Shown here one piece after another: positions 9,093 through 26,348 of a stretch of DNA of 32,000 nucleotides (position 1 is the first letter of the stretch; every line of letters begins with the position of its first letter). The DNA is from Phycisphaera mikurensis NBRC 102666. GTDB lineage: Bacteria; Planctomycetota; Phycisphaerae; Phycisphaerales; Phycisphaeraceae. Made by a program: the position numbers and the translations under genes. The notes under the pieces are model-generated. The model was not told the DNA's origin and did not search any database. It saw only the letters and a program-made list of their open reading frames with translations. The stretch spans positions 3,330,001 to 3,362,000 of the forward strand of contig NC_017080.1 of assembly GCF_000284115.1 (NCBI RefSeq), in the 5' to 3' direction.

Positions 9093-9506
9093 TCAGGCCG
9101 CGACCCCGGAAGCGGCCGGCGAGCCGAGCACCTCCTGAACGAGGGCGAGCATCTCGCGGCCGCTGAACGGCTTCCGCTTCACGGCGACGAGGCTCGGGCT
9201 GCCGAGGGCCTCCGGGGGCAGCGTGTGGCCGCGGCCGGTGAGCAGCACGACCGGGATCCCGTGCAGCGTCGGGTCGGCCTGCAGTTTGGCGACCAGGCCG
9301 GCGCCGTCGAGCACCGGCATGTTGAAGTCCGAGACGATCAGCGAGGGGTGCCGCTGGGTCGCGACGGCCAGGGCTTCGGCGCCGTTGCACGCGGTCGCGA
9401 CGGCGATGCCGGCGCCCTCCAGCTTGAGCGCCAGCAGCCGCAGGATGTGCGACTCGTCGTCGACCAGGAGCACGAGCGGCGGGGTTGCAGCGGGATCGGC
9501 CGGCAT
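9093..9506 (-). CDS. Stand-alone CheY-like receiver-domain response regulator (no output domain)
   Basis: MPADPAATPPLVLLVDDESHILRLL... has the acidic pair DD, the phospho-acceptor Asp in LIVSDFNMP, Thr in VVLLTG and Lys in RKPF. ATG at 9506 is preferred. The ORF-track TTG at 9620 adds 38 codons containing CTA, TTA and CCA with lower third-position GC. Confidence 0.8.
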   Translation of the reverse strand: MPADPAATPPLVLLVDDESHILRLLALKLEGAGIAVATACNGAEALAVATQRHPSLIVSDFNMPVLDGAGLVAKLQADPTLHGIPVVLLTGRGHTLPPEALGSPSLVAVKRKPFSGREMLALVQEVLGSPAASGVAA

Positions 9507-9616
9507 GCGGTCGGCATCGGCCCGTCGGCTTAAAGCCTTGAGCACGCGGTGCGGACGCCCCGGCGTCGCGCTTGGTAATAGCGTGGGCCGCCGCGGCCGG
9601 CCGGCCCGAGTGCCGC

Positions 9617-10561
9617 TCAAGCACCGGCGGGCCGGTCGTCGTCGGCGAGCCAGCGGAGGCTGCCGGGCAGGACCTCGGCGGCGACCGGATCGAGCACGCG
9701 GCGGAGCGAGACCGAGTCGACCTGCAGCCCCGCGGTGCCGTCACGCGTCTCCACGAAGAAGTAGCGGGAGCCGAGGGGCGGCAGCGGCGGGAGCGTGAGG
9801 TCGTCGACGATCGTCACGAACGCTCCCGCGACCGGCCCGACGACCGCCTGCTGGACCACCAGATGGAGGGCGCGGGCCTCGAGACCGACGCGGAGGTGAT
9901 CCCCACCGGAGGTCACGCGCGCCGTGGCGGCCAGCCGGAAGGTGGCATCGGTGAGCAGATCCGCGGGCATCGGCACCTCGAGGCCGTCGCTGGGCTCGTC
10001 GCGGTCGTCGAGCTCGGCGACCCGGCGGCCCCCCAGGCGGACGCGACGCAGCTCGGCGTCCTCGTCGCCGCGGCCCAAGGTGGGCGCCACGCCGTGCTCG
10101 AAGGACGGATTCGGCAGGAGCTCGGGCCCGAGCCGGGGCGGCTCGCGGAGCGTCGCGGCGAGGACGCGCACCGAGTCACCGACTTGCGCCCGAACCCGCA
10201 CGCGGTGCACGCCGGGGGAGCCGGGTTCCGGCTCGACCTTCGTGTGCAGCGAGCCCTCGCCAAGCGGCTCGGGACCCGCCCAGCCCGCGGGCGGTGCCGC
10301 CGCGAAGGCGGCGTCGCGGCCGAGACGGTTCGCCGCCGCCGCGACGCCGGCGACCGCGAGCGACTCCGCGACGGCGGCATCGGTGCCCAGGGCCGCGGTG
10401 GCGCGGACCAGCCGCGCCGCCAGCAGCCCGGAGATGCCCAGGATGGCGACCATCGCGGAGGTCCCGAGCACGAGCAGGTAGACCGAGCCGCCGCGGCGGG
10501 CGCGGCACGTGCGGCACGCGCGACGCCGCGGGGGAACGCTACGGGGCGGGCGGAGGCTCAA
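9617..10561 (-). CDS. GspK-like minor pseudopilin with C-terminal carbohydrate-binding-like beta-sandwich
   Basis: The proposed TTG start at 10561 overlaps the upstream stop (TTGA). The N-terminus ...RRGGSVYLLVLGTSAMVAILGISGLLAARL is a GspK-type hydrophobic segment lacking Glu+5. The C-terminal part LLPNPSFEHG...FRLAATARV...YFFVETRDGTAGLQVDSVSLRRV resembles CBM4/9-type jelly-roll modules. The ORF-track start at 11128 is a false extension. Confidence 0.6.
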   Translation of the reverse strand: MSLRPPRSVPPRRRACRTCRARRGGSVYLLVLGTSAMVAILGISGLLAARLVRATAALGTDAAVAESLAVAGVAAAANRLGRDAAFAAAPPAGWAGPEPLGEGSLHTKVEPEPGSPGVHRVRVRAQVGDSVRVLAATLREPPRLGPELLPNPSFEHGVAPTLGRGDEDAELRRVRLGGRRVAELDDRDEPSDGLEVPMPADLLTDATFRLAATARVTSGGDHLRVGLEARALHLVVQQAVVGPVAGAFVTIVDDLTLPPLPPLGSRYFFVETRDGTAGLQVDSVSLRRVLDPVAAEVLPGSLRWLADDDRPAGA

Positions 10562-11121
10562 CCCCCACCCCCCGCCGCGCGGCGGGTTGCCAGGCCCACG
10601 GCCTCGGCGAGCAGACGCTCGCCGCGGGTCACGCGCACGACCACCCGCTTGAGGCCCTCGTCGGCGCCGGCCTCCGTGCCCGGCGACGCCGCGGAGACGT
10701 GCCGCACCCAGGCCGCGCGGCGGAGGCCCGCGGTCCGCGGGATCTCGACGCCCTGGCGGTCGAGCAGCGGCGATCGGGACCAGCCGTCGACGTCGTCGAC
10801 GTCGTCGAAGCCGGTGCGGCCGGGCGCGGCCATCTCCTGCGCCGTCGGGCCCCACCCCGGCGCGAAGCCCGGGCGGTACGGCCCGTCCTCGGGGTCGTCG
10901 TACGCGAGCGCGAGCGCCTCGGCCACCAGGTCCTGCGCCAGCCGCGCCGCCAAGGCCCGCTCCGCCGAGCGGTGCCGCGTGCCCGCCGCCGCGGCCGAGG
11001 CGTGCAGGGCCGCCACCATGAGGCCCGCCACCAGCAGCATCGACAGCGTCGCCTCGACCAGCGAGACGCCGGCGCGGCCGCGGTCCGGCCGCGCCCGGAG
11101 GTTCGGCGGACCGGGGCTCAC
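10558..11121 (-). CDS. Minor pseudopilin (GspI/J-like), prepilin-type N-terminus
   Basis: The GTG start at 11121 overlaps the upstream stop (GTGA). The prepilin motif is RGRAG|VSLVEATLSMLLVAGLMVAAL, with Glu at +5. 187 aa. Confidence 0.7.
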   Translation of the reverse strand: MSPGPPNLRARPDRGRAGVSLVEATLSMLLVAGLMVAALHASAAAAGTRHRSAERALAARLAQDLVAEALALAYDDPEDGPYRPGFAPGWGPTAQEMAAPGRTGFDDVDDVDGWSRSPLLDRQGVEIPRTAGLRRAAWVRHVSAASPGTEAGADEGLKRVVVRVTRGERLLAEAVGLATRRAAGGGG

Positions 11122-12740
11122 GCGCCACCTCCGGCAGCGCCGCCGGTGGCGTCGAGCACGTCGAGCTCGACGCCCGTGGCGGAGGAAGCGAAGCGGAAAT
11201 CGTCGGCGTCGACGGCCGAACGCTCCACCGGGAGCGTCCCCACGGAAGCGCCGTTGACCGCCACGGACACCCGCTCGTGGTCGGGATCGAGCACCAGCGT
11301 CACGTCCGCCCAGCTCCCGCCGGGAAGGCCAACGCCGTGCCAGCCGCCGGCCGCGTCGCCGCTGCCGGGGCTGCTGAAGCGGATCCGCTGGCCCTCCGCG
11401 TCGCGGCGGACGTGGACCGCCACCCGGGCGGCTTCCGCACCGAGGCGGCCGAAGCGGACCTCCACGCCGCCGCCGCCGTCGCCGGCCGTGCGGTCGCGCA
11501 GACGCAGCCTCAGAAGGGTCGGGCCGGGCAGGCCGGCCGCCACGCCGCCGAGGCTGAAGCCCGCCCCGTCCCGCACGTCGAGCACCCCGCTGGCCACGGC
11601 GTTCGGCGGCAGGCCGCCGCCGAAGTCGGGCACGCCGTCGGCGTCGAGGTCCAGCAGGTGGGGCGCCGCGGCGAAGTCGGTGCGGCGTCGCCACCCGCTG
11701 GCGACGACACCGGGCGCCGGCGTCGCCACCGCGACCACATCCCGCGAGCCCGCGACGCCGAGCCGCAGCGTCGCCGGGCCCAGGAGAGAGCGATCGTGCG
11801 ACCAGGCCGGCCCGGGCGTCCAGGCACGGCCCCGCAGCTCGTGCCTGGCCCGCGCCGCCTGCACCCGCGTCCACGTGGAGCCGCCGTCGGTGGAGGTGAA
11901 GAGGCCGTCGGCGAAGTTCGCGTCGGCGTCGCCGGTCTCGAACACCGCGGCGTCCTCGGGCGAGACCTCCGCGGTCTGCAGCGTCGCGACCAGGCCCACG
12001 CCCGCCGGCACGCGCAGCGCCCCGCCGTCGGCGGCGAAGGCGAGCGTCTCCCACGTCATGTGGTGATCCATGTCGCTGCGCCCGAGCTGCACCCCGGCGA
12101 GCACGGGGCCCGCCGGCCGGTCCCCCGCCCAGCGGCGGATCCGCAGGTCGAGCACCCCGGTCGAGTGGATGTGCTCGAGGCGCAGCCTCAACGCGCACAG
12201 CTCCCACGCGACGGCGTCCGCGGGCAGCGTCGGGAGCAGCGGCACCGCGAAGCCCGCCACGGCCCGCACGGTCCGCTCGTCCTCTGTGTCCCCGAAGCCG
12301 CCCAGCGGCTCCTCCTCCCCCCGCTCGGGGACGCCCGGCTGCGGGAGGCTCAGCGTCCGGACGCTCGGGAGGAGCGTGAACGCGTCCAGCGGGCCGCTCG
12401 CCTCCTCGATCGGGCCGCCGTTCCAGCGGCGTTGCAGCGGCGCCCCCGGCTCATTCTCACGCCACCAGCGGACCGACTCCGGCAGACCGTCGCCGTCGCG
12501 ATCGGGCAGCGCCAGCGTGACGTCCGAGGCGCCCTGCGGGGTGACCACCAGCGCGACGGCGAGCTCGGAGGCGAGGCGGGCCGCCGCGTCGCCGGCCCGC
12601 CGCTCCGCCTCGGCGGGCCCGTCGGGCGCCGGCACGGTCCGCACCGCCACCAGCAAGGCCGAGCTCATCCCCAGGAGCAGCACCGAGCTGATGCCCAGCG
12701 CGAGCACCAGCTCCACGAGCGTCGCGCCGGCGCGCCTCAC
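11118..12740 (-). CDS. Giant (540 aa) minor pseudopilin with Asp-box, DxDxDG-like and LamG-like C-terminal segments
   Basis: The GTG start at 12740 overlaps the upstream stop (GTGA) and gives a 5-aa leader: VRRAG|ATLVELVLALGISSVLLLGM, with Glu+5. DRDGDG and DLDADGVPD are acidic Ca-binding-like motifs. STDGGSTW (nt 11871-11894) matches the BNR/Asp-box SxDxGxTW. The C-terminus WADVTLVLDPDHERVSVAVNGASVG is concanavalin/LamG-like. Confidence 0.7.
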   Translation of the reverse strand: MRRAGATLVELVLALGISSVLLLGMSSALLVAVRTVPAPDGPAEAERRAGDAAARLASELAVALVVTPQGASDVTLALPDRDGDGLPESVRWWRENEPGAPLQRRWNGGPIEEASGPLDAFTLLPSVRTLSLPQPGVPERGEEEPLGGFGDTEDERTVRAVAGFAVPLLPTLPADAVAWELCALRLRLEHIHSTGVLDLRIRRWAGDRPAGPVLAGVQLGRSDMDHHMTWETLAFAADGGALRVPAGVGLVATLQTAEVSPEDAAVFETGDADANFADGLFTSTDGGSTWTRVQAARARHELRGRAWTPGPAWSHDRSLLGPATLRLGVAGSRDVVAVATPAPGVVASGWRRRTDFAAAPHLLDLDADGVPDFGGGLPPNAVASGVLDVRDGAGFSLGGVAAGLPGPTLLRLRLRDRTAGDGGGGVEVRFGRLGAEAARVAVHVRRDAEGQRIRFSSPGSGDAAGGWHGVGLPGGSWADVTLVLDPDHERVSVAVNGASVGTLPVERSAVDADDFRFASSATGVELDVLDATGGAAGGGA

Positions 12741-13234
12741 CGCAGGATCTCCGTGGAGCCCGACCCCGCGTCGACGGTCACGCGGAGTTGCCGCGAACCG
12801 ACGCCCAGGGTGACCCAGCCGCCGCCGTCGGGCGTGCCCCACGCGTCGAAGGTCGGGCCGGGGCGGTTCCCGAACGCGACGGCGTCGATCTTCACGGCCA
12901 GCGGGTCGTCGTGGAGGCGGAGCGGGGCCGCCGGCGACCCGTTCTGCGGGTTCGCCCCGGCCGGCAGCCCGCTGGGGGTGGCCGTGCCCGCCGCCGCGTC
13001 GAAGGCGACGGTCACGGGCGAGCGGGTGGCGGCGGCCGCCGCCCGGGCGTGGTCCAGCCGGGCCGCCACCTGCCCGGCCGCCGCCCGGAGGCGTGCGTCG
13101 GCCAGCGACCGGCTGTACCGCGGGGCGGCGATCATCGCCCCCGCCCCGACCAGCGTCAGCACCAGCACCAGCTCCACCAGCGTGAAGGCGCGGACGGATC
13201 GGGCGGGGCTCGGCGTGGACGCGGCGGTCATCAC
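12737..13234 (-). CDS. GspH/FimT-like minor pseudopilin
   Basis: N-terminus is MMTAASTPSPARSVRA|FTLVELVLVLTLVGAGAMIAAP (prepilin N-methylation motif, Glu+5, Ala at -1). Start is GTG 13234 or ATG 13231. 165 aa. Confidence 0.75.
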   Translation of the reverse strand: MMTAASTPSPARSVRAFTLVELVLVLTLVGAGAMIAAPRYSRSLADARLRAAAGQVAARLDHARAAAAATRSPVTVAFDAAAGTATPSGLPAGANPQNGSPAAPLRLHDDPLAVKIDAVAFGNRPGPTFDAWGTPDGGGWVTLGVGSRQLRVTVDAGSGSTEILR

Positions 13235-13253
13235 AGCGGCGGCGTCCGCGTGC

Positions 13254-13718
13254 TCAGAAGCGGCCGGCGGCGTTGCCCCAGATGCGGCCGGACGCCTCGT
13301 GGTAGAGCCAGCCGACGCCCGCGGTGCTCGAGACCGTCGTCGGCTTGGCGGCCACGCCTTCGACGCCCGCGTTGCCCTTCGCGTCGCCCACCTTCAACTC
13401 GGGCACCGCGACCAGGTACGGCCCGTAGTCGTAGCCCGGGGCCGGCTCGGCGACGGCGCCGCCGGCCTCGTTGGTGAAGGTGGTCAGCTGATCGGTGAAG
13501 CTCGTCGCGCTGGGGAACGCTCCGTGCTCGGCGGCGTAGAGCTCGATGGCGTTGCGGAGCACGGCGAGATCGGCCACGTAGGCGTTCTCGCTGGCGTTGG
13601 CGGCGCCCTGGCTGAAGCGGGGGATGGCGATCGCCGCGAGCAGGCCGATGATCACGACCACGATGATGAGCTCCACCAGGCTGAAGGCGGCGGAGCGGCG
13701 GGGTTGACGTGTGGGCAT
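13254..13718 (-). CDS. gspG: Major pseudopilin / type IV pilin-like protein (GspG-like)
   Basis: The ATG at 13718 is preceded by AAAGAGGA (Shine-Dalgarno-like) 7 nt upstream. N-terminus is MPTRQPRRSAA|FSLVELIIVVVIIGLLAAIAIPRF (Glu+5). 154 aa. The ORF-track start at 13979 is a false extension. Confidence 0.85.
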   Translation of the reverse strand: MPTRQPRRSAAFSLVELIIVVVIIGLLAAIAIPRFSQGAANASENAYVADLAVLRNAIELYAAEHGAFPSATSFTDQLTTFTNEAGGAVAEPAPGYDYGPYLVAVPELKVGDAKGNAGVEGVAAKPTTVSSTAGVGWLYHEASGRIWGNAAGRF

Positions 13719-13802
13719 GGCGATTCCTCTTTCGTGCGGATGGGGTGGCCTCGGAAGCGTTCCGAGCCGGTTCTTCGCGATCATCGGCACGACGCGGCCC
13801 GG

Positions 13803-13832
13803 AGTGAAGAAACGTACGGGATTTCCTGTAAA
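13803..13832 (-). promoter_or_regulatory. Candidate internal promoter for the pseudopilin sub-operon (AT-richer island in the 154-bp gap)
   Basis: The minus strand reads TTTACA (13832-13827), then 18 nt, then TTCACT (13808-13803). This is the lowest-GC patch inside the locus, about 85 nt upstream of the gspG-like ATG. The match to a sigma70 -10 is weak. Confidence 0.2.
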
Positions 13833-13872
13833 TTCAGGCGGCAGCGGGTCGGGGCGGACACGCCCGGAGGCG

Positions 13873-14448
13873 TCAGGGCAGGAACAGCGGGTCCGCGCCC
13901 GCGAGCGGCGTCGCCCGCGGCGGGTCGGCGGCGCGCAGCCCGGCGCGGAAGCGGAGGCCGCGGCCCGCCCACACCGCATACCGCCCGCGGATCGACTCGA
14001 GCTTCATCCCGTCGACCGTCGCCCCCACCTGCACCACCCGGCCGGCGACCACCGCCCGCGCTTCGGGCCCCTCGCCGAGGACGGCTTCGAGCGGGTGGCG
14101 CCGCAGGAACGAGCGGACGTCGAAGGGGTCGATGGCCGCCCAACGCGCCTCGACGTCCGGCGCCGCGGCGGCGGGCGCCACGCGGAAGGGGTCCGCGGCG
14201 GGTGCGGCGCCGGCGGCCGCCGGATCGGCGCCCCCGTCGCGCCGCAGGCGCCGGTCGATGCGTCCCGCCGGCCCCGGCGGAAACGCCGCGTCGGGCGTCG
14301 CCCCCGGAGCCGCGGCGGGCGCGGCGGCCGGCGCCGCGGCGGGCGGCGACGCGGTGGCGGTGGCGGGGCTGCCCCCGATGCGATCGAGGGCGACCACGCC
14401 CGCGGCGAGGGCGGCGGCGACGGCGAGGTTCCGGGTCCGCTTGTTCAA
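13873..14448 (-). CDS. PilP/GspC-like inner-membrane-anchored protein
   Basis: The proposed TTG start at 14448 overlaps the upstream stop (TTGA). It has an N-terminal anchor LNKRTRNLAVAAALAAGVVAL, an Ala/Pro-rich linker, and a C-terminal beta domain DPFDVRSFL...AVVAGRVVQVGATVDGMKLESIRGRYAVW. An alternative GTG start lies at 14484/14487. Confidence 0.5.
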   Translation of the reverse strand: MNKRTRNLAVAAALAAGVVALDRIGGSPATATASPPAAAPAAAPAAAPGATPDAAFPPGPAGRIDRRLRRDGGADPAAAGAAPAADPFRVAPAAAAPDVEARWAAIDPFDVRSFLRRHPLEAVLGEGPEARAVVAGRVVQVGATVDGMKLESIRGRYAVWAGRGLRFRAGLRAADPPRATPLAGADPLFLP

Positions 14449-15002
14449 GGCACGCCTCCGGGTGCCTCGGGCGGGACGATCGACCACGTCAGCAGGTGGC
14501 GGCCGAGCAGCCCGCCGCCCTCGGGCCGCAGGGAAAGCGACGTCGAGCGGAGGTCGCGCGGGCCGCTCTGGATGCGGCCCAGGAAGGCCCGGTGCGCCGC
14601 GTACGAGCCGCGGGCCTCCAGCTCGATCGCCACCTCCGCCCACCCGCCCGCGCGGACCGGCTCGCCGGGATCGAGGCGGAGCACCTCCAGCCCCCCGGAG
14701 GCCGCGAGGTCGAGGAGGCCGGCCAGGCGCGCGTTGCGTTCCTCGGAGCGGCCGGCGACCACGCCGGCCGCCGCCCGCTCGGCGAGGCGGGCCTCCTCCG
14801 CGCGGGCGGCGGCCAGCTCGACCGCCACTTCGTGACGCTCCGCCTTCGCGGCGGCCAGGCGTGACGCGGCGGCCTGCGTGGAAGCCGCGGCGGCGCGGGC
14901 GGGCGCGACCAGGCCCAGCCAGGCGGCCCCGGTCGAGCCCGCCACGATGGCTCCCGCGGCGGCGGCGGTGAGCAGCAGGCTCGGCGTGGGGCGGGGCTTC
15001 AT
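14445..15002 (-). CDS. PilO/GspM-like bitopic membrane protein
   Basis: The ATG at 15002 overlaps the upstream stop (ATGA). It has a TM segment (MKPRPTPSLLLTAAAAGAIVAGSTGAAWLGLV), an Ala/Glu/Arg coiled coil, and a C-terminal domain WAEVAIELEARGSYAAHRAFLGRI. Confidence 0.6.
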   Translation of the reverse strand: MKPRPTPSLLLTAAAAGAIVAGSTGAAWLGLVAPARAAAASTQAAASRLAAAKAERHEVAVELAAARAEEARLAERAAAGVVAGRSEERNARLAGLLDLAASGGLEVLRLDPGEPVRAGGWAEVAIELEARGSYAAHRAFLGRIQSGPRDLRSTSLSLRPEGGGLLGRHLLTWSIVPPEAPGGVP

Positions 15003-16516
15003 CCGGCGGGATCCCCATCGGGCCCGGCGGGCAGCGGCATGAGCTCCAGCAGGACCTCGAAGCGGACGCCTGGGGTCTCCGCGCCCACCCGGCGGGCGCG
15101 GGCCAGCTCCACCCGCTCGAAGAGCTCGCCGGCTTCCAGCGCCAGCGCGAAGGCCCAGGCGGCGGCCGGGTCGTCGGCCTCGCCGGCCACCCGGATCCGG
15201 GCTGCCCCGCCCGCGGCAGCCGGCGCGATCGAGAGCTCGGTGAAACGCACGCGGCCGCGGGCGTCGGCCGCGAGACGGTCGAGCAGCAGCCGCCAGTCGG
15301 GCCGGTCCGCCGCTCGCTCCGAAGCGACCGCCTCCGCGGCGAGGGCTTCCAGCCGGCCGCGGACGGCCTCGAGCTCGAGCCCCGCGGCGTGGGCCGCCAC
15401 CGCCTCCGCATCCGCCTCGGCCGCCAGCGTCGAGGCGTCCACGCGGGCACCGTCCGCCTCGTCGGGCCCCGACGAGGCGAGCAGCGCGGCAATCACCGCG
15501 ACCGCGGCGGCGTAACCCGCGGCGCTGCCGAGGAGCCCGCCGCGCGCCCGAGCCTCCCGGCGGCGACGGCGGATCGCCGGGGGGAGCAGGTCCACCGCGT
15601 CGTCCGCACCCCCGCCGAGCCCCGCGGCCACCGCCGAGACGCCGGCCGCGCCGCCAATCGCGAGAAGCCGCAGGCCGAGGCGGTCCGCGAGGGCGGAGGC
15701 CCAGCGTCCGCCCGCGTCGCGGGTGCACAGCGCCGGATCCGACTCCGCCCCCAGCAGGCGCTGGGCGTGCCGCAGCCCCGGCGACAGCTCCGCCGCGAGC
15801 GCCTCGCACTCGGCCGGCGAGGCCTCCCGGCCCTCCGCAGGCGGGATGGCGTGCAGGCCCCGCAGGTAGACGCACCGGCCGCCGCACGCCACCACCAGCT
15901 GGCCGCCGAAGCCGGCCTCGCCGGGCGATTCCCACCGGTCCAGCAGCACGAGCACCTCCCCGCCGCCGGCGGCCGATCCGAGGGCCGCGGCCCGGGCCAG
16001 GGCATCGGCACGGCTCCGCACGCCGACCACGCGCAGCCCGGCCCCGGCGAGGGCGGCGCAGCCGAGCTCCAGCGGCGTGCGGCGGCAGCCGCGAACCAGG
16101 AAGCCCCGGCCGTTGCCCATCGCGGTGGCGACGCCGAGGAAGTCGTCCTCCGCCGCGCCGACGGCGGCGGCGCCGCGGCGGACCGCTTCGGCGGCGGCGG
16201 CCGCTTCGGAAGCACCCGCCGCCCGCGTGCCGCCCTCGATGCACGTCGAGAAGCAGGCTTCCTGAGGGACCGAGAGCACGACCCGGCGGCCGCGGAAGCG
16301 GCGGCGGGCGAGCACGCGGGCGAGCGCCTCGGACTCCGCCGGACCGGGCCAAGCCGCGTCCGCGGCGTCCGGCGGTCGCTCGGGGCGGGGCACCTCCACG
16401 GCATCGATCGGCGTGCCGTCGGCGGCCTGCTGCGCCGCCCGGATCGTGCGGCCGTCCACCTCGAGGCGGATCGGGCCGCAGCGCCCGGGGAGCCCTCGGA
16501 GCAGCGGCACGCTCAC
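14999..16516 (-). CDS. PilM-PilN fusion protein (GspL-like assembly platform component)
   Basis: The GTG at 16516 overlaps the gspF stop (GTGA). The N-terminal ~330 aa are actin-like PilM-type (IRLEVDGRTIRAAQ..., VVLSVPQEACFSTCIE). A PilN-type segment follows (DLLPPAIRRRRREARARGGLLGSAAGYAAAVAVIAALLA, basic stretch plus TM), then a periplasmic domain. 505 aa. Confidence 0.6.
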   Translation of the reverse strand: MSVPLLRGLPGRCGPIRLEVDGRTIRAAQQAADGTPIDAVEVPRPERPPDAADAAWPGPAESEALARVLARRRFRGRRVVLSVPQEACFSTCIEGGTRAAGASEAAAAAEAVRRGAAAVGAAEDDFLGVATAMGNGRGFLVRGCRRTPLELGCAALAGAGLRVVGVRSRADALARAAALGSAAGGGEVLVLLDRWESPGEAGFGGQLVVACGGRCVYLRGLHAIPPAEGREASPAECEALAAELSPGLRHAQRLLGAESDPALCTRDAGGRWASALADRLGLRLLAIGGAAGVSAVAAGLGGGADDAVDLLPPAIRRRRREARARGGLLGSAAGYAAAVAVIAALLASSGPDEADGARVDASTLAAEADAEAVAAHAAGLELEAVRGRLEALAAEAVASERAADRPDWRLLLDRLAADARGRVRFTELSIAPAAAGGAARIRVAGEADDPAAAWAFALALEAGELFERVELARARRVGAETPGVRFEVLLELMPLPAGPDGDPAG

Positions 16517-17652
16517 GAGCCGCCCCCGCCCGCCATCGCCGTGAGGTCGAACAGCGGCAGGAACATGCTCATCGCCAGCGCCCCCACCACGAGGCCGAGC
16601 AGCAGGAGGATCACCGGTTCGAGGGTCTTGGTCAGCAGCCGCACCAACGCGTCGTTCTCCTGCTCGAGGAACTCCGCCACCGCCACCATCGCCGGTCCGA
16701 GGCGGCCGCTGGACTCGGCGCTGCGGAAGGCCTCGTACACCGAAGGCGCAATCAGGTCCGGGTCGTCGAAGGCGGCGGAGACGCCCTCGCCGCGGTCCAC
16801 GGACGTCTCCGCCGCGTCGAGCAAAGCGCGGTAGCGGGCGTTGCCGCAGGATCCACGGACCAGCGCCAGCACCTCCATCAGCGGGAGGTGGCAGTCGGTC
16901 AGCACGCCGAAGAGCCGGACGATCTGCGCCGTGGCCAAGCCTTTGATCACCGGCCCCAAGCCCGGCACGCGGAGCAGGGTGGCGTCGAGCGCGAGCCGGC
17001 CGGCGGGGCTGCGGACCAGCAAGAAGCCGGCGGTCGCCGCGGCGGCCAGGCCGCCGCCGATCCACAAGCCCTGGTCGCGGAGGGTCTGGCTGGTCCACAC
17101 CGTGATCTGCGTGGTCGGCGGCATCGGCACGTTGAGCGTCTCGAAGAGCCCCGCGAAACGCGGCACGACGAACAGCAGCATCGAGACGCCCACCGCCGTC
17201 ACCACCGCCAAGAGCGCGAGCGGGTAGGCCAGCGCGGCGATGACCGCCGAGCGCACCTGCAGGTCCTTCTGGATCAGCCCCGCGACGCGCTCGAGCATGT
17301 CGCCCAGCCGCCCCGTCGACTCGCCCGCGGCGACCAGCCCGCGCGACACCGCCGGGAACAGCTCCGGCCGCCTGCCCATCGCCCCCGACAGCGAGCTGCC
17401 GCCCTCGATCGATTCCGCGAGCTCGGCGACGGTCCGCTCCCACAGCGGGTCGGCGGTCTGGCGGCGGAGCGCGTCGAGCGACTGCAGCAGCGGCGTGCCC
17501 GCCGAGAGCAGCAGCTGCAGCTGCCGGACGAAGAGCAGCAGCTGCCGCCGGCGGCCGAAGCGCTGCGCGGGCGTGAGGCGCCCGGCGGCGCGGGGCGGGG
17601 CGCCGGCCGGAGCGACCGGCGGCTCGAGGACGATGCCGGGGACGCCGCTCAC
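16513..17652 (-). CDS. gspF: Type II secretion / type IV pilus platform protein GspF/PilC
   Basis: The GTG at 17652 overlaps the gspE stop (GTGA). Two T2SSF repeats are present (LLFVRQLQLLLSAGTPLLQSLDAL...GESTGRLGDMLERVA and ...AESSGRLGPAMVAVAEFLE). Three TM helices. 379 aa. Confidence 0.9.
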   Translation of the reverse strand: MSGVPGIVLEPPVAPAGAPPRAAGRLTPAQRFGRRRQLLLFVRQLQLLLSAGTPLLQSLDALRRQTADPLWERTVAELAESIEGGSSLSGAMGRRPELFPAVSRGLVAAGESTGRLGDMLERVAGLIQKDLQVRSAVIAALAYPLALLAVVTAVGVSMLLFVVPRFAGLFETLNVPMPPTTQITVWTSQTLRDQGLWIGGGLAAAATAGFLLVRSPAGRLALDATLLRVPGLGPVIKGLATAQIVRLFGVLTDCHLPLMEVLALVRGSCGNARYRALLDAAETSVDRGEGVSAAFDDPDLIAPSVYEAFRSAESSGRLGPAMVAVAEFLEQENDALVRLLTKTLEPVILLLLGLVVGALAMSMFLPLFDLTAMAGGGGS

Positions 17653-19493
17653 GCCGCCACCGCCGTTCGAGCCGCGTCCTCGCCCTCGTCCGCGGGCGGC
17701 GGACCCGGCGCGGCGTCCTCGCCGAACTCGTCGCGGTGGGTGACACGCAGCGCTTCCTCGAGGTTGCAGACGCCGGCGATCGCGAGGGCGACGCCCTCGT
17801 CCCGCAGCGTCCGGCCGCCCTGGGCCGCCCAGCGGCGGCCGATCTCCTGGGCGCTCGCGCCGGTGTGGATCCCCCGGCGAAGCGGCCCGTCGACGGCCAT
17901 CACCTCGTAGACGCCGCGCCGGCCGAGCATGCCGCTGTTGTGGCACTTCTCGCACCCGGTGCCCTGGCTGAAGGCGCCCTCGTGCGCGGGATCCAGCCCG
18001 GCGTCCTCCAGCGCCTCCGCCGGCGGCCGGTAGCGCGTGCGGCAGTGCGGGCAGACGGTCCGCACGAGCCGCTGGGCCACCACGCCGTTGAGCGCGGCCG
18101 AGAGCAGGTACGTCGGCACGCCCATGTCCAGCAGCCGGGTGACGGCACCCGGGGCGTCGTTGGTGTGCAGCGTCGCGAGGACGGCGTGCCCGGTGAGCGC
18201 GGCCTGCACGGCCGTCCGCGCCGTCGCCTCGTCGCGGATCTCGCCGATCATGATGACGTCGGGGTCCTGGCGGAGGATGCTGCGCAGCGCGCGGGGGAAG
18301 GACAGGCCGACCGCCTCGCCCACCTGGATCTGGTTGATGAAGTCCAGCTGGTACTCGACGGGGTCCTCCACCGTCATCACGTTCTTCTCGGGGCTCCGCA
18401 GAAGGTCCAGCGCCGAGTACAGCGTCGTGGTCTTGCCGCTGCCGGTGGGGCCGGTCACCAGCGTCAAGCCGTGGGGTCGCTTGAGCACGCCCATCAGCGT
18501 CTCGAGCTGCTCGTGGGTCAGCCCCAGCTCCTCCATGCGGACGCGGAGGTTCCGCTTGTCGAGCACGCGGATCACCAGCTTCTCGCCGAGCAGCGTCGGC
18601 ATCGACGACACGCGCAGGTCGATGTCGCGGCCCTCCGCCTTGAGCCGCACGCGGCCCTCCTGCGGCAGCCGCTTCTCGGCGATGTCCATCTTGCCGATGA
18701 CCTTCAGCCGCGAGACGATCGCGGCGTGCATGCCCGCCGGCGGGCTCATCAGCTCGCGCAGCACGCCGTCGACGCGGTAGCGGATCCGCGTCGCACGGCC
18801 CGCGGGCTCGACGTGGACATCGCTGGCGCCGTCCTTGATCGCCGAGAGCAGCGCGACGTTCACGAGGTTGACGATGGGGCTGCCCTCGACCATCCGCTCC
18901 AGCGTGGAGCCGGCCTCGATCTCGACGGCCTCCTGGTCGACCACCTCGACGTCTTGCTGCACGTCGGTCTTGGCGAGCTGAGAGAGGAAGGCGCCCACGT
19001 CGACGCTGGTCGAGGCGTAGCGCCCGATGAACTCCTCGATCTGGCCCTCCAGCGCCAGCACCGGCCGGATGCGGCAGCCCGACATCGCGGCCAGCCGGTC
19101 GATCGTGTCCAGCGACTGCGGCTCGGCCATCGCCACCGTCAGCTCGCCGTGCACGCGGAACAGCGGCAGCGACCGCAGCTTCCGGCACGCCTCCGGGCCG
19201 AAGAGAACCAGCAGCGCCGGGTCGATCAGGCCGTGCCGCAGCGTGATGGCCGGGACCGCCAGCGCCTCGCCGAGCACGGCGAGCAGCTGGCGGCCGGTGA
19301 GGACCTCCATGTCGATGAGCACCTCGCCGAGCCGCCGCCCGCCGCTGCGCTGGCGTTGGAGCGCCGTCCGCAGCTGCTCGGGCGTGATGGCGCCGGAGTC
19401 GACGAGCAGGTCGCCGATCCGGGGGCCGCTGCCGGCGGCCGGGGCGGCGTCCGCGGCGGCCTCCGACGGGTGCCCGGGGGAGACCGCTCTCAC
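17649..19493 (-). CDS. gspE: Type II secretion / type IV pilus assembly ATPase GspE/PilB
   Basis: The GTG at 19493 overlaps the STAS stop (GTGA). It has an N-terminal T2SSE_N-type domain (IGDLLVDSGAITPEQLRTAL...). Motifs: Walker A GPTGSGKTTT, Asp box MTVEDPVEY, Walker B PDVIMIGEIRD, His box LATLHTNDA. The tetracysteine motif is CPHC...CEKC. Confidence 0.93.
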   Translation of the reverse strand: MRAVSPGHPSEAAADAAPAAGSGPRIGDLLVDSGAITPEQLRTALQRQRSGGRRLGEVLIDMEVLTGRQLLAVLGEALAVPAITLRHGLIDPALLVLFGPEACRKLRSLPLFRVHGELTVAMAEPQSLDTIDRLAAMSGCRIRPVLALEGQIEEFIGRYASTSVDVGAFLSQLAKTDVQQDVEVVDQEAVEIEAGSTLERMVEGSPIVNLVNVALLSAIKDGASDVHVEPAGRATRIRYRVDGVLRELMSPPAGMHAAIVSRLKVIGKMDIAEKRLPQEGRVRLKAEGRDIDLRVSSMPTLLGEKLVIRVLDKRNLRVRMEELGLTHEQLETLMGVLKRPHGLTLVTGPTGSGKTTTLYSALDLLRSPEKNVMTVEDPVEYQLDFINQIQVGEAVGLSFPRALRSILRQDPDVIMIGEIRDEATARTAVQAALTGHAVLATLHTNDAPGAVTRLLDMGVPTYLLSAALNGVVAQRLVRTVCPHCRTRYRPPAEALEDAGLDPAHEGAFSQGTGCEKCHNSGMLGRRGVYEVMAVDGPLRRGIHTGASAQEIGRRWAAQGGRTLRDEGVALAIAGVCNLEEALRVTHRDEFGEDAAPGPPPADEGEDAARTAVAA

Positions 19494-19858
19494 AGGAAGC
19501 TCCTCGCGGCGTCTTCCGCGTCGTCGTGGTGGTCGAAGGCCTCGTGCTGGCCCGTGATTTCCAGGATCGTGGCGATGGCGGAGGTCGCCCCGCAAAGGCG
19601 GAGGGTGAGCCCGCCGTCCTCGAGCCGGCCGGCCGCGTCGACGAGCGACTCCAGGCCGATGCTGTCCAGGGCCGCAACGCCCGAGAGATCGACGACCAGC
19701 CGCCCCAGCGTGCGGACCTCCTCCTCGGCCAGGAGCTCCGCGAAGGAGGCCGCGGCCTCCCCGGTGAGCGACCCGCGGGGGGCGAGCACGGTGACCCCGC
19801 CGATCCGCTGCACGCGGGTGCCGGCGGGGGCTTCGGGTTGCTCCGCGGGGCGGCTCAC
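19490..19858 (-). CDS. STAS-domain protein (SpoIIAA/RsbV-like anti-sigma-factor antagonist)
   Basis: GTG start at 19858, 1 nt after the kinase stop. 122 aa: VTVLAPRGSLTGEAAASFAELL...LVVDLSGVAALDSIGLESLV...LRLCGATSAIATILEITG. The conserved phosphorylatable-Ser context DSIG is present. Confidence 0.8.
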   Translation of the reverse strand: MSRPAEQPEAPAGTRVQRIGGVTVLAPRGSLTGEAAASFAELLAEEEVRTLGRLVVDLSGVAALDSIGLESLVDAAGRLEDGGLTLRLCGATSAIATILEITGQHEAFDHHDDAEDAARSFL

Positions 19859-19859
19859 C

Positions 19860-21488
19860 TCAGGCGGCCCTCCGCGGCGCCGATTCGTCCGCGGCGTCCG
19901 CGCCGATCGAGCCCGCGACGCGGTGCTCCGGCGAGCCGCCCCGCAGCGGGATCCTCAGGACGAACGCGGCGCCGACGCCGCCGTCCCCGTCGGACACGGT
20001 CAGCGTGCCCTCGTGCAGCGCCGCCACCTCGGCGGCCAGCGGCAGCCCCAGCCCGGTTCCCTCCGGCTGCGCCTCGCCGGCCGCCGCGTCGTGCGTGCCG
20101 CGGAAGAACGGCTCGAAGACCTTCTCACGCTCCTCGGCCCGCACGCCCGGCCCGTCGTCGACCACCCGGACCTCCAGCACCTCGTGCGCCACCGCCGCGT
20201 GAACAACGGTCCGCCCGCCGCGGCGGCCGTACTTCACGGCGTTGCCCACCAGGTTGTGCAGCAGCATCGAGAGCTTCTCGCGGTCGCCCTGCAGCACCGG
20301 CAGGTTCGGCTCGGCGTCGAGCGTGAGCGTCTGCTCCCGCGAGGCCGCGGCGGCCCGGTGCTCCTCGACCACCTTGGGCAGCAGCGTTGCCCAGGCCACG
20401 TCGTCCGAGGCGGCTTTGAGGCTGCCCGCTTTGATCTGCGAGACCGAGAGCACCTCGTCGATGAGGCGGGCGAGGCGGAGCACCTCGCCGTTGACGTGGT
20501 TGAGGCACTCGGCCCGCTCGGCCGCGGCCTCGGCCCCGGGGGTGGTCCCCAGGTCGATCGCCCGCTCGGCGTGCAGCTGCATGTTCTGCAGCGGTGCCCG
20601 CAGCTCGTGGCTGGCCTGCGCCACGAAGAGGTCGCGGGCCCGGTCGGCCGCCCGCTGCTGCGTGACGTCCTCGAGCAGCAGCAACGCCCCGCCGCCGGCG
20701 GCGGCCTGGCCGGCCCGCTTGCCGCCGCCCGCGGCTGCGCGCAGCGGCCGCAGCGTCACACGCAGCACCGACTCGCCCGCCGGCCCGGCGGGCACCTCTG
20801 CGCTGCCGCCCCGCCGCTCGAGCCCGGCCGCCACGGCCGACGCCCGGCCGGCGATGCCCTCCTCCGCGAAGAGCTCCTGAACCGACGCCTCCAGCAGGTC
20901 GGCCCGCGGCCGACGCAGCAGGCGCGCCGCCGCGCCGTTGGCCCGCGTGACCCGCCCGTCGCCGCCGAGCACCACCAGGCCGTGCGGCACGGCGTCGAAC
21001 GCGGCCGGGTCCTCGCCGGGCGCGGCGGACGGGGCGGCGGCCACGCCGGCCGCGCCGGCCGCGCCACCGACGCCGCCGCCGGCGGCGATGCGGGCGAGCA
21101 GGCGGTTCCAGTCGGCCGCGGGCTTGGCCGAGGTCCGGGTGATCTCCAGCAGAGCCGGGGCGACGCGGCCGTCGGCGAGGTCGGCGACGGCCCGCACGAC
21201 CAGCGTCTGCGCCCCGCTGCGCCACGCCAGCACCCCCACCGCCGCCATCAGCCCCAGCCCCCCCGCCGCGACCCCGGCCGAGGCCGCCGCCGTCGCGCCC
21301 GCCTCCGCCACCCCGCCGGGCACGAGGTAGCCCGCCGCCAGAGCCGCCCCCGAGAGCCCCGCCAGCGCCAGCGACAGCCCCCGCCCGTGGCGGCCCGCCC
21401 AGGCCGCGAAGCCCGGCATCGCGGCCGCGGCCGCCGACGCCGACGCGGAAGCGGGCGTTCTCGGCTCGGCGGTCCTCTCTTGCGGCAT
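19860..21488 (-). CDS. Membrane sensor histidine kinase (2 TM, PAS, HisKA, HATPase_c)
   Basis: ATG at 21488. TM segments are LSLALAGLSGAALAAGYLV and GLGLMAAVGVLAW. A PAS-like region is FDAVPHGLVVLGGDGRVTRANGAAARLL. Kinase boxes: H-box FVAQASHELRAPL, N-box LHNLVGNAVKYG, G1 DDGPGV, G2 GTGLGL. Confidence 0.88.
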   Translation of the reverse strand: MPQERTAEPRTPASASASAAAAAMPGFAAWAGRHGRGLSLALAGLSGAALAAGYLVPGGVAEAGATAAASAGVAAGGLGLMAAVGVLAWRSGAQTLVVRAVADLADGRVAPALLEITRTSAKPAADWNRLLARIAAGGGVGGAAGAAGVAAAPSAAPGEDPAAFDAVPHGLVVLGGDGRVTRANGAAARLLRRPRADLLEASVQELFAEEGIAGRASAVAAGLERRGGSAEVPAGPAGESVLRVTLRPLRAAAGGGKRAGQAAAGGGALLLLEDVTQQRAADRARDLFVAQASHELRAPLQNMQLHAERAIDLGTTPGAEAAAERAECLNHVNGEVLRLARLIDEVLSVSQIKAGSLKAASDDVAWATLLPKVVEEHRAAAASREQTLTLDAEPNLPVLQGDREKLSMLLHNLVGNAVKYGRRGGRTVVHAAVAHEVLEVRVVDDGPGVRAEEREKVFEPFFRGTHDAAAGEAQPEGTGLGLPLAAEVAALHEGTLTVSDGDGGVGAAFVLRIPLRGGSPEHRVAGSIGADAADESAPRRAA

Positions 21489-21747: not shown

Positions 21748-23058
21748 TTAGGCGTCCTCGGCCCGCCCGCCGCCCGCCGCCGCGAGGCGTCGCTGCAGGA
21801 AGACGAAGCCCAGCCACGACAGGAACGACAGCCCCGCCGTCGCCGCGAAGAGCCACGCCCCGATCCCCCCGAAGGCCGGCAGCCCGACCCGCTCCACCGC
21901 CGGCCAGCCCGCGAACAGGGCCGTCCCGAGGAAGGGCGCGAAGGCCCCCCGCACCCCCGTCAGCGTCTGGTGGATCGCCATGTACGTCGGCACCAGCCGA
22001 CGGTCGGCGAAGTCGTTGTGGCCCAGCTGCCACGCCAGCACCCCGCCGCCGCGCATGAAGCCCCAGCCCGCCGCCGCCGCGTACATCAGCGGCAGCGAGG
22101 CGAACCACGCCGCCAGGAACATCACCGACTGGTTCAGCACCCACGTCATCGCGTGCCCGATGCGGAAGCGCGCGATGTGGTTCGCGTCGAGCCGGCGCGA
22201 CCACCAGGGCATCGACAGCGTCGCGATCAACAGCGGCACCGCCGCCGAGATCAGCATGCCCTGCGTGTTCTGCGTCCGGGGGGCGACCGCCGCCAGGTGC
22301 TCGATCACCATCAGCGTGAAGGCGGTGATCGCCATCATGTTCGCCACGCCGCCGGCGAACTGGCAAGCCAGGTAGAAGCGGTAGACGCGGTCCTGCGCCA
22401 GCACCGACCACACCGTGTGCGGCTTCCCGGAGGCCTGCCGCGGCGCGTCCGCCTCGTGCGGCCGCCGCTCGTCGCGGAGCAGCCGCCGCTCGCCCCGCAC
22501 GCGCACCCGCCAGAAGCTGCGCACGCCGAGGAATCCGATCGCCGCGGCCAGCGGGAACACCACGCGGAAGCTCCAGGGGCGCCAGTCCAGCAGCGGGCCG
22601 ACCGCGAGCGGGACCGCCATGAGGATCACCGTCGCGGTGAGCACGAACTTCGTCGTGATCGTCGCGCGCAGGCTCCTCGGGAAGTTCATCCGCCAGATCG
22701 TGCTGCGCACGTTCACGACGCCCGCCAGCACCACCCGCGCCGCGACGGCGAGCACGACGAGCAGAGAGGGCCCCGGGCCCGTCGTCGGGAGCAGCGCGAT
22801 CGCCGCAACGAGCACCAGCGACGCCGCCATCAGCCACGAGGTCACCGCCACCTTCGGCTTCCCCCGGGCGACCCGCGTCCAGACCAGCGAGGTGAGATTC
22901 GCGAACATCGGCGCCGCCACGATCGTCGCGAAGCCGAGGTTCCCGACGCCGAAGACGTTCTTCGCGACGACCGCGATGACGCCGCCCTCGAGCAGCGCGA
23001 GGGCGAAGGGCACGGTCATCGCCGCGCGGATCTCGTGGTGGTACGCCTGCCGCGTCAT
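21748..23058 (-). CDS. MFS-type transporter (about 12 TM helices)
   Basis: Hydrophobic helices run throughout (VPFALALLEGGVIAVVAKNVF, FATIVAAPMFANLTSLVW, ...). The start is uncertain: ATG 23058 (MTRQAYHHEIRAAMTVPF), or GTG 23121 / GTG 23139 upstream. Confidence 0.7.
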   Translation of the reverse strand: MTRQAYHHEIRAAMTVPFALALLEGGVIAVVAKNVFGVGNLGFATIVAAPMFANLTSLVWTRVARGKPKVAVTSWLMAASLVLVAAIALLPTTGPGPSLLVVLAVAARVVLAGVVNVRSTIWRMNFPRSLRATITTKFVLTATVILMAVPLAVGPLLDWRPWSFRVVFPLAAAIGFLGVRSFWRVRVRGERRLLRDERRPHEADAPRQASGKPHTVWSVLAQDRVYRFYLACQFAGGVANMMAITAFTLMVIEHLAAVAPRTQNTQGMLISAAVPLLIATLSMPWWSRRLDANHIARFRIGHAMTWVLNQSVMFLAAWFASLPLMYAAAAGWGFMRGGGVLAWQLGHNDFADRRLVPTYMAIHQTLTGVRGAFAPFLGTALFAGWPAVERVGLPAFGGIGAWLFAATAGLSFLSWLGFVFLQRRLAAAGGGRAEDA

Positions 23059-23165
23059 CGGCGGCTGCGCGGCCGTGCGGAAGCCGGCCAGCGGGTTGGG
23101 CAGCGTTGCGGACCGGCTCACGGCGCACCGTAGTCCCACCGTGGTCCGCGGCCGTACAAGGGGGT

Positions 23166-23765
23166 GTGCCCGATCCCGCCCTGACGCCCGAGCTGCTCCT
23201 CCGCGCCTACGCCAGCGGCGTCTTCCCGATGGCGAGCGAGACCTCGGCCGGAGCGGTCGGCTTCTACGCCGCCGACCCCCGCGCCATCCTCCCGCTCGAC
23301 GGCGGCTTCCGGGTGCGGCGCTCGCTGGCGAAGCGGGTCCGCAACGGCGGCTTCGAGGTCACGGCGGACGCCGACTTCGCGGCCGTCGTCGACGCCTGCG
23401 CCGCCCCGCGGCGCGGGTCGCCGGGGACGTGGATCAATGCGGCCATCCGCGACGCCTTCGTGGGGCTGCACCGCCTGGGCCACGCCCACAGCGTGGAGGC
23501 CCGCCGCGGCGGCGAGCTCGTCGGCGGGCTCTACGGGCTCGCGCTCGGCGGCGCGTTCTTCGGCGAGTCGATGTTCTCGCGTTGTCCCGATGCGAGCCAG
23601 GTCTGCCTGGTCCGGCTGGTCGAGCGGCTGCGGGCCGGCGGCTTCGTGCTGCTCGACTCGCAGTACCACAACCCGCACCTGATGCAGTTCGGGATGCAGG
23701 AGATCCCCGCCGCGGAATACCAGCGGCGGCTGTCCGCGGCGCTGGAGGTCGACGGACGCTGGTAG
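23166..23765 (+). CDS. aat: Leucyl/phenylalanyl-tRNA--protein transferase
   Basis: Sequence LTPELLLRAYASGVFPMA...TWINAAIRDAFVGLHRLGHAHSVE...GGLYGLALGGAFFGESMFS...LLDSQYHNPHLMQFG matches the L/F-transferase family signature. GTG at 23166 is preferred. The ORF-track TTG at 23106 is possible. Confidence 0.85.
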   Translation: MPDPALTPELLLRAYASGVFPMASETSAGAVGFYAADPRAILPLDGGFRVRRSLAKRVRNGGFEVTADADFAAVVDACAAPRRGSPGTWINAAIRDAFVGLHRLGHAHSVEARRGGELVGGLYGLALGGAFFGESMFSRCPDASQVCLVRLVERLRAGGFVLLDSQYHNPHLMQFGMQEIPAAEYQRRLSAALEVDGRW

Positions 23766-23820: not shown

Positions 23821-24195
23821 TCAGGGCAGCACGAGCGTCTGGCCGACGTTCAGCCGGCCGGGGTCGATACCGGGATTGGCCGCGGCGATGTCTCGCCACT
23901 TGGTCTCGCTGCCGTACTGGCGGCGGGCGATGCCCATGAGCGTGTCGCCCTTGGCAACCGTGTACAGCCCGCCGGCGGGGCCGACGGGGGCGGGGGCCAT
24001 GGCCTCGGGGCCGGCGAACGCCGCCGAGCCGGCACCGGCGGCGGACCGGCCGTCCTCCACGGGCGGGAGCGCCACCGACACCAGCGGCCGCGGCTGGATC
24101 GGCTCCACCGGCGCTTTCTCACGCGGCGGGGCGACGCAGCCGGCGGCGGCGGAGAAGGCGACGAGGACGGCGGGCAGCAGGCGGGAGGCGGGCAT
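23821..24195 (-). CDS. LysM-domain lipoprotein
   Basis: Signal and lipobox are MPASRLLPAVLVAFSAAAGC. The C-terminal LysM is YTVAKGDTLMGIARRQYGSETKWRDIAAANPGIDPGRLNVGQTLVLP. Confidence 0.85.
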   Translation of the reverse strand: MPASRLLPAVLVAFSAAAGCVAPPREKAPVEPIQPRPLVSVALPPVEDGRSAAGAGSAAFAGPEAMAPAPVGPAGGLYTVAKGDTLMGIARRQYGSETKWRDIAAANPGIDPGRLNVGQTLVLP

Positions 24196-26234: not shown

Positions 26235-26263
26235 GGGCGTGGCATCGCTTGGCAGCGATCCGA

Positions 26264-26348
26264 GCGAAGGTGTCAGGTACCTTCGTCCCTGACGCTGCGG
26301 CCGGATCGGGAGCGGGCGGACGCGGATGAAGGTACCTGACACCTTCGC
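26264..26348. repeat. Perfect 21-bp inverted repeat (43-nt spacer) between lemA stop and M48 start
   Basis: gcgaaggtgtcaggtaccttc (26264-26284) is the exact reverse complement of gaaggtacctgacaccttcgc (26328-26348). GC content here is lower than the surroundings. It lies 15 nt after the lemA stop and 29 nt before the M48 ATG. Confidence 0.8.

Follow-up and report, generated by a model that had tools for sequence, protein, structure and literature searches.

A STAS protein conserved beside, and in places fused to, the assembly ATPase of a type IV filament operon in Phycisphaerae: a candidate regulator of the filament motor

Introduction

What does a STAS protein do when it is encoded between a histidine kinase and the assembly ATPase of a type IV filament operon? 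The question is raised by a 32-kb stretch of the genome of Phycisphaera mikurensis NBRC 102666 (Phycisphaerae, Planctomycetota; 75% GC), which we refer to as the window. The original prediction, made from the letters of this DNA, was that the STAS protein may bind or gate the GspE/PilB ATPase itself, instead of taking part in a partner switch with a sigma factor. We find this idea supported by gene adjacency, by gene fusions and by the lack of a canonical partner-switching module nearby, with binding of the two proteins deduced from these observations. We assign a rough probability of 0.6 to the reading that the operon's MshE/PilB-type assembly ATPase, itself a predicted sensor of cyclic di-GMP (c-di-GMP), is gated by STAS as its dedicated regulatory subunit or domain. 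We likewise favor a direct, probably physical, partnership between the two proteins because of their strict adjacency within one ATPase subclade, the persistence of the pair when the kinase gene moves, a conserved coupled junction and in-frame fusions.

The STAS gene lies within a minus-strand operon (9617-21488, plus a receiver gene at 9093-9620) that encodes, in order, the histidine kinase, STAS, GspE, GspF, PilM/N, PilO, a protein without an assigned family, five pseudopilins and a receiver-only response regulator. The elements that carry the argument, in window coordinates, are these:

19860..21488, minus strand: membrane-anchored PAS histidine kinase with HisKA and HATPase_c domains (Pfam matches)
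19490..19858, minus strand: STAS protein, 122 aa, single domain, SpoIIAA-like (PF01740, E = 4e-15)
19661..19666, minus strand: codons for D65-S66 in LDSIG (D65, 19666-19664; S66, 19663-19661)
19500..19504, minus strand: AGGAG Shine-Dalgarno sequence of GspE, within STAS codons Arg119-Ser120, 6 nt before the GspE GTG
17649..19493, minus strand: GspE/PilB-type assembly ATPase, 614 aa, with MshEN (E = 9e-17) and T2SSE (E = 2e-133)
19266..19421, minus strand: predicted tandem MshE-type c-di-GMP motif, GspE residues 25-76 (NF053729, 64.9 bits, cutoff 38)

Results

STAS-ATPase adjacency is conserved within one ATPase clade

Scanning with GspE, at one genome per species, recovered 80 GspE/PilB loci. 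In all 22 scanned loci whose ATPase showed at least 59% identity, a family-type STAS gene stood directly upstream of the ATPase gene, as it did in two more distant loci, L026 and L028 (47-49% ATPase identity; loci are cited by their L numbers). The family hidden Markov model (HMM) found no STAS gene within 6 kb in any of the 56 loci at 44% ATPase identity or less, a set that includes paralogues from Phycisphaerae, Sedimentisphaerales and Pirellulales, and STAS was absent from the Pfam families matched at least twice among the upstream open reading frames (ORFs) of these 56 loci. As a gauge of sensitivity, the same HMM matched SpoIIAA and RsbV sequences at 1e-7 to 1e-8. The closest ATPase homologues come from Phycisphaerae, including the cultured Algisphaera agarilytica (L003), and the contigs of three STAS and six ATPase homologues all read kinase, STAS, GspE and GspF followed by pilin genes. 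Adjacency is conserved, with STAS directly before GspE in 33 of 33 orthologous loci and in eight distant metagenome loci. Within the GspE subclade it held without exception across 28 loci from genome contigs and metagenome assemblies, L086-L088 and the window.

In a neighbor-joining tree of 167 ATPases, 39 of the 40 STAS-linked enzymes fell into a single clade, whose only other member, L134, lies on a 5′-truncated contig and is uninformative. Both this tree and the taxon labels of contigs from metagenome-assembled genomes (MAGs), such as 'Anaerolineales' for L027 and 'Thermodesulfobacteriota' for L026, are approximate. Where the kinase gene is displaced, by 3.6 kb in L026 and also in L089, L090 and L092-L094, STAS stays with GspE.

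STAS is fused to the ATPase in distant relatives

Searching metagenomes with the L026 GspE as the only query gave no loci; a search with an alignment of ATPases headed by L026 gave 80, eight of which carry a family-type STAS directly upstream of the ATPase. In four of these eight contigs, STAS is fused in frame to the ATPase N-terminus, giving a single ORF of about 690 aa:

L090, 7608-9674: STAS-ATPase fusion
L092, 7587-9668: STAS-ATPase fusion
L093, 4103-6190: STAS-ATPase fusion
L094, 5091-7193: STAS-ATPase fusion

Each fusion has an ATG upstream of STAS and proceeds through a 20-25 aa linker to an RLGD c-di-GMP motif, MshEN and T2SSE. Pfam shows STAS, MshEN and T2SSE together in three of the four, and the STAS domain of the fourth was found by the family HMM. 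By the Rosetta-stone argument, such in-frame fusions point to physical coupling of STAS and ATPase. All four keep the conserved Ser discussed below, as N-S in three and D-S in one, and all lack the C-terminal AVRSFL tail of the free-standing proteins, which may be a docking tail made redundant by covalent linkage. Gene order in these distant lineages is PAS histidine kinase, receiver, GAF-HD-GYP or GAF-GGDEF-EAL, STAS joined or next to GspE, and GspF.

The ATPase fusions surfaced only by locus scanning. Among the best 150 representatives from a search of 1.84 billion proteins, STAS was fused only to RsbW-type kinases, PP2C, Ser/Thr kinase, TIR or further STAS domains in tandem, and no T2SSE or HisKA fusion occurred. 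The nearest outgroup STAS proteins include unusual fusions (P0301, P0330): one combines three STAS domains with a Ser/Thr protein kinase domain and ankyrin repeats (1206 aa), and another is a TIR-STAS protein (443 aa).

The STAS/GspE junction is conserved at the codon level

The gene boundaries first read from the sequence hold on the minus strand: the kinase stop (TGA, 19862-19860) is followed by one G (19859) and the STAS GTG (19858-19856), and the STAS stop (TGA, 19492-19490) overlaps the GspE GTG (19493-19491) in a 4-nt GTGA. The STAS ORF can be taken as real because its in-frame GC content at third codon positions is 0.90 and it matches PF01740 and STAS_2. The original prediction had taken the overlap as a sign of stoichiometric co-translation of STAS with GspE. 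The overlap itself stands; its specificity does not, since nearly all junctions in the operon are 4-nt start/stop overlaps (GTGA, ATGA or TTGA), for example GspE/GspF, GspF/PilMN and PilMN/PilO, and we rejected it as special evidence. Judged by these junctions, the whole operon is a chain of translationally coupled genes.

What is specific to the STAS-GspE pair is the conservation of its junction across relatives, together with the fusions. A 4-nt NTGA overlap was present in 25 of 28 loci. At the Shine-Dalgarno sequence embedded in the STAS gene, the Ser codon was AGC or AGT in 28 of 28 loci, and the Arg codon was AGG in 20 and CGG in 7 of the 27 loci with this Arg (L028 lacks it), with no other Arg codon used. 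The two codons therefore always read (A/C)GG-AG(C/T), which provides a GGAG Shine-Dalgarno sequence for the ATPase. The C-terminus A-V-R-S-F-L of free-standing STAS proteins is conserved, and synonymous changes at the Ala, Val, Phe and Leu codons around Arg-Ser indicate that the tail is also under selection at the protein level.

The STAS protein has a SpoIIAA fold and a conserved serine

Against Pfam PF01740 the window protein scores 55.8 bits (cutoff 22.6), and against STAS_2 it gives E = 1.6e-10; its score against TIGR00377, the model of anti-sigma-factor antagonists, is 47.8 bits, under the cutoff of 53.45. An AF2 model (predicted local distance difference test score 90.2) has a four-stranded beta-sheet and four helices in the SpoIIAA fold. 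Its top Foldseek matches are the anti-sigma antagonists 4hyl, 1tid and 1th8 (the latter two SpoIIAA) and 6m36 (RsbV), with probability 1.00 and TM scores of 0.74-0.79, and it superposes on RsbS (6jhk) as well. A profile search of PDB sequences agrees with the fold, giving SpoIIAA/RsbV-type matches at 1e-8 to 1e-12. The chains 6zy2_B and 6xbd_K of MlaB are distant profile matches (E about 0.007-0.009); with 16.7 bits against the MlaB model NF033618 (cutoff 90) the protein is not a member of that family, and the window contains no mla genes (MlaF/E/D).

The DSIG serine context, noted at the outset as that of kinase-phosphorylated relatives, is present: in a profile alignment, LDSIG puts Ser66 at the phosphorylated position of SpoIIAA/RsbV, with D65-S66 aligned to DSSGL/DSAGL of 1th8 and 1sbo. 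D65-S66 is invariant across 61 aligned family members, and DS occurs in about 190 of 194 family proteins (about 98% Ser); three have G or I in place of Ser, and one, with N-S, keeps it. The family comprises at least 474 clusters at 90% identity, with most members 111 aa long, and 36 representatives at E <= 1e-30 among the 1.84 billion proteins. In the nearest STAS proteins outside the family, the domain is joined to HATPase_c_2, SpoIIE, Ser/Thr kinase or TIR, which places the family's origin among classical phosphorylatable switch proteins.

The partner ATPase carries a predicted c-di-GMP motif

The ATPase has a T2SSE core (PF00437, 445 bits) and an MshEN domain (PF05157, 61 bits). It scores nearly equally against the PilB model TIGR02538 (561 bits, cutoff 676) and the GspE model TIGR02533 (553 bits, cutoff 630), both under cutoff. 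Tandem 24-residue motifs of the form RLGxx(L/V/I)(L/V/I)xxG(L/V/I)(L/V/I)xxxxLxxxLxxQ define MshE-type c-di-GMP binding (PMC5013675), and the window ATPase is predicted to bind c-di-GMP through such a tandem: motif 1 is intact, and in motif 2 the G and the last Q are missing. Across the orthologue alignment, motif 1 is well kept and motif 2 is often without its leading Arg, Gly or final Gln. In the distant locus L026, a second, PilT-like ATPase (7718-8779) directly follows GspE. The MshE-type motif, the receiver at the end of the operon and the recurrent HD-GYP and GGDEF-EAL genes of relatives, described next, were not part of the original prediction.

A GAF-HD-GYP or GAF-GGDEF-EAL gene lies immediately upstream of STAS in L026, L089, L090, L092-L094 and L136, and in L166 such a gene is found about 2.5 kb upstream of STAS, past the receiver and kinase genes and on the opposite strand. 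Pairs of receiver and HD-GYP genes flank the Phycisphaerae operon in L018, L025, L086 and L088; in L028 the two lie near but not next to each other, and L005 has HD-GYP without a receiver. These neighbors, with the c-di-GMP motif of the ATPase, speak for an alternative in which STAS is a scaffold that docks the HD-GYP/GGDEF-EAL enzyme or the receiver onto the ATPase, so that MshEN would see a local c-di-GMP pool. There are precedents in Pseudomonas, where HsbA binds the cyclase HsbD and SiaC binds SiaD (PMC5085249, PMC7647112). However, no c-di-GMP enzyme is encoded within 10 kb in the window, where there is a receiver only, or in L003, L004 and L087, and many orthologues have a degenerate motif 2 in their c-di-GMP site. 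We consider a scaffold unlikely, though compatible with the gating role we prefer.

The kinase probably signals to a receiver rather than to STAS

A further alternative is that STAS binds the GHKL domain of the adjacent kinase, as an antagonist or as a Ser substrate in the manner of SpoIIAA and SpoIIAB, and that the ATPase is affected only indirectly. In each of the 31 Phycisphaerae-type loci (the 33 orthologous loci minus the distant L026 and L028), the kinase gene immediately precedes STAS; the predicted gap ranges from -53 to +57 nt in all but L002, where the kinase is fragmented and the gap is 243 nt. As originally stated, this kinase has the only GHKL domain nearby, and the neighborhoods hold no other kinase for the conserved Ser. 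Through GHKL homology it also gives a weak HATPase_c_2 match, which rises above cutoff in L090.

Against such a role, all catalytic motifs of the kinase, including the phospho-accepting His, are retained: neither the H-box SHELRAPL nor the N, G1, F and G2 boxes vary among 25 orthologues. The operon also encodes a cognate receiver, in which inspection finds the Asp of SDFNMP, the LLTG Thr and the KPF Lys, and its orthologues stand at the operon end in L003, L004 and L086. Kinase and receiver together have the sequence hallmarks of a two-component system. By its motifs the kinase is a bona fide histidine kinase, and its most likely target is the receiver instead of STAS, along with c-di-GMP enzymes where these are present. 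Moreover, in loci with an altered gene order (L026, L089-L094) STAS remains with GspE instead of the kinase, and the four ATPase fusions contrast with no kinase fusion among the best 150 representatives. On this balance a kinase-bound STAS is improbable. We hold just as little confidence in a hybrid of two-component signaling and partner switching, in which Ser66 would be phosphorylated by the kinase's GHKL domain or toggled by the receiver, and STAS would alternate between the kinase and the ATPase N-terminus as a post-translational gate of the filament motor that integrates local c-di-GMP.

No canonical partner-switching module was found near STAS

The original prediction had seen no RsbW-like kinase, PP2C phosphatase or sigma factor near the STAS gene, and our searches bear this out. 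None was found among the plausible ORFs of the window, searched for HATPase_c_2, SpoIIE/PP2C and sigma domains, and no RsbW/RsbU/sigma module was found near any of the 41 STAS-linked loci. A phmmer search detected no RsbW-like or PP2C ORF in 168 loci, nor did the Pfam tables of the window, L001, L003-L005, L026 and L086-L088.

That STAS is an ordinary anti-sigma-factor antagonist, with its RsbW-type kinase, PP2C and sigma factor encoded elsewhere and its place in the operon serving co-expression, which might tie filament production to a sigma regulon, is very improbable: its closest relatives in sequence and fold are SpoIIAA, RsbV and TM1442, its Ser is conserved and HATPase_c_2 or SpoIIE is the fusion partner of the nearest outgroup STAS domains, but strict, long-lived adjacency to one ATPase subclade and in-frame fusions would be unexpected for a hitch-hiking sigma regulator, every neighborhood is free of sigma, RsbW and PP2C genes, and the TIGR00377 score stays under its cutoff.

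A proposed mechanism for STAS gating of the ATPase

With direct gating of the ATPase as the preferred reading, we propose the following mechanism. The STAS protein would be translated from the same transcript as the ATPase, immediately before it, and would bind the ATPase N-terminal region. Once bound, it may switch the motor on or off or recruit the motor's signaling partners, so that its mode of action could be a Ser66 phospho-switch, a conformational gate or recruitment. The full module would consist of the PAS histidine kinase, the receiver-only regulator, in many relatives a GAF-HD-GYP or GAF-GGDEF-EAL protein, STAS and the c-di-GMP-binding ATPase. Through its MshEN motif, the ATPase would read the output of the kinase, receiver and c-di-GMP enzymes, and it would drive assembly of the type IV filament. 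From the comparative evidence described above we infer that STAS binds the ATPase, that Ser66 works as a switch, by phosphorylation or by conformation, and which way the regulation runs.

Several observations weigh against this reading. Start/stop overlaps occur between most genes of the operon, and coupling is thus not unique to the STAS-GspE pair; conservation of Arg-Ser in the C-terminus can be put down to the embedded Shine-Dalgarno sequence instead of protein function. The three family members without Ser, together with the N-S of three of the four fusions, suggest that phosphorylation may not be essential. RsbW-type kinases, PP2C and Ser/Thr kinases are the fusion partners of the closest outgroup STAS domains, and, our searches having covered gene neighborhoods, a kinase and phosphatase for STAS may be encoded elsewhere in the genome. 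Finally, STAS distance matrices correlate with those of the kinase and of the ATPase sub-domains at 0.72-0.92 throughout, and partial correlations are near zero, so that this comparison is uninformative.

Remaining genes of the operon and window

The remaining genes of the operon are as follows:

16513..17652, minus strand: GspF/PilC platform protein (T2SSF, E = 4e-44); its GTG at 17652 overlaps the GspE stop
14999..16516, minus strand: PilM-PilN-like fused protein (weak PilN match)
14445..15002, minus strand: PilO-like protein (PF04350, E = 1e-3; PilO match in L005)
13873..14448, minus strand: conserved protein of about 190 aa at the expected PilP position (ORF kept there in L003-L005 and L086-L088)
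13254..13718, minus strand: major (pseudo)pilin (N_methyl, E = 6e-7; GspG TIGR01710, E = 3e-12)
9617..13234, minus strand: four minor pseudopilins (GspH and N_methyl matches; starts overlap preceding stops), listed individually in the next three lines
12737-13234, minus strand: GspH-like pseudopilin
11118-12740, minus strand: large minor pseudopilin
10558-11121 and 9617-10561, minus strand: remaining two minor pseudopilins
9093..9620, minus strand: receiver-only response regulator (Response_reg, E = 1e-16; start uncertain, TTG 9620 or ATG 9506)

A single ORF of about 505 aa encodes both the PilM-like and the PilN-like part in the window and in its closest relative, L001 (13370-14959); the two are separate genes, PilM_2 (about 340 aa) and PilN (about 195 aa), in L003, L005, L087 and L088. 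Profile searches with Pfam and NCBIfam gave no significant family match for the protein at 13873..14448. In relatives, the last pilin-like gene (9617-10561 in the window) carries a CBM_4_9 or Laminin_G_3 domain (L001, from 19712; L086, 19041-20003; L087, 18839-19978), which suggests a sugar-binding tip protein; the window copy has no Pfam match. The window operon encodes neither a retraction ATPase nor a secretin, and the window has no Rfam match to a c-di-GMP riboswitch or other RNA and no tRNA.

Elsewhere, the window begins within the R subunit of a type I restriction enzyme (3-2504, plus strand) and ends within a phage-type integrase (31302-32000, minus strand), each cut by the window edge; in L087 an integrase directly follows the operon. 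Upstream of the kinase gene lie a Leu/Phe-tRNA protein transferase (22980-23765, plus), a small LysM-domain ORF (23821-24195, minus), an M48 peptidase whose C-terminus weakly matches TerB (24327-26342, minus) and LemA (26364-27188, minus). The long ORF of a Bax-inhibitor-like membrane protein (26890-28161, plus) overlaps a 5′ extension of the LemA ORF, and the starts are uncertain.

Discussion

The known cofactors of these motor ATPases are c-di-GMP, PilZ/FimX and a few inhibitors. If the proposed role is correct, a STAS subunit or STAS-ATPase fusion would be a new class of cofactor for filament motor ATPases and would provide the first link of the partner-switching domain family to type IV filament motors. 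The module itself is widespread in Phycisphaerae, with hundreds of MAG proteins from soil, marine and wastewater sources, and occurs in at least one other lineage. The original prediction knew of no equivalent for a GspE/PilB ATPase, and our full-text literature searches likewise found no paper joining STAS or an anti-sigma antagonist with PilB, GspE, T2SSE, MshE or planctomycete pili. A 2024 review of PilB cofactors mentions no STAS, anti-sigma or partner-switching proteins (PMC11656802).

The reported systems nearest to this one, BtrV, HsbA/HsbD, SiaC/SiaD and MlaB-MlaF, share its logic but not its target or composition. With SpoIIAA and RsbV of Bacillus (1th8, 1tid, 6m36), the window protein has in common the single-domain STAS fold and the D-S at the phosphorylation site. 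Unlike them, it has no RsbW/SpoIIAB kinase, PP2C or sigma factor nearby and is instead locked, and in some relatives fused, to a filament ATPase, and its family has its own AVRSFL C-terminus and a TIGR00377 score under cutoff.

MlaB and MlaF offer an example of a small STAS protein serving as a stoichiometric accessory subunit of an ATPase. MlaF is an ABC ATPase, a class unrelated to the PilT/GspE-type hexamer that is the partner here.

In the Bordetella BtrU/BtrW/BtrV system, as the original prediction noted, partner switching controls type III secretion, with the STAS protein BtrV acting post-transcriptionally and not via a sigma factor (PMC7498569). BtrV thereby controls a secretion machine, as we propose for the STAS protein here. 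The Bordetella locus encodes the BtrW kinase and the BtrU phosphatase, whereas the window locus encodes neither an RsbW-type kinase nor a phosphatase; and the Bordetella machine is a type III secretion system in which the target of BtrV is not known, whereas here the fusions point to a PilB/GspE ATPase as the partner.

In Pseudomonas, the HptB-HsbR-HsbA-HsbD and SiaABCD systems use STAS-type switches to link phosphorelay input to c-di-GMP enzymes (PMC5085249, PMC6482189, PMC7647112), and modules of the window type similarly join a two-component system, c-di-GMP enzymes and STAS. The Hsb and Sia systems have a dedicated kinase/phosphatase (HsbR; SiaB/SiaA) and target FlgM, RpoS or a cyclase, and none is attached to a filament ATPase. 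The known PilB/MshE cofactors, namely c-di-GMP via MshEN, PilZ-FimX, CpiA and TfpB, likewise exert post-translational control through the ATPase N-terminal region, where the window ATPase has the same MshEN c-di-GMP motif as MshE (PMC5013675) and where we propose that STAS binds.

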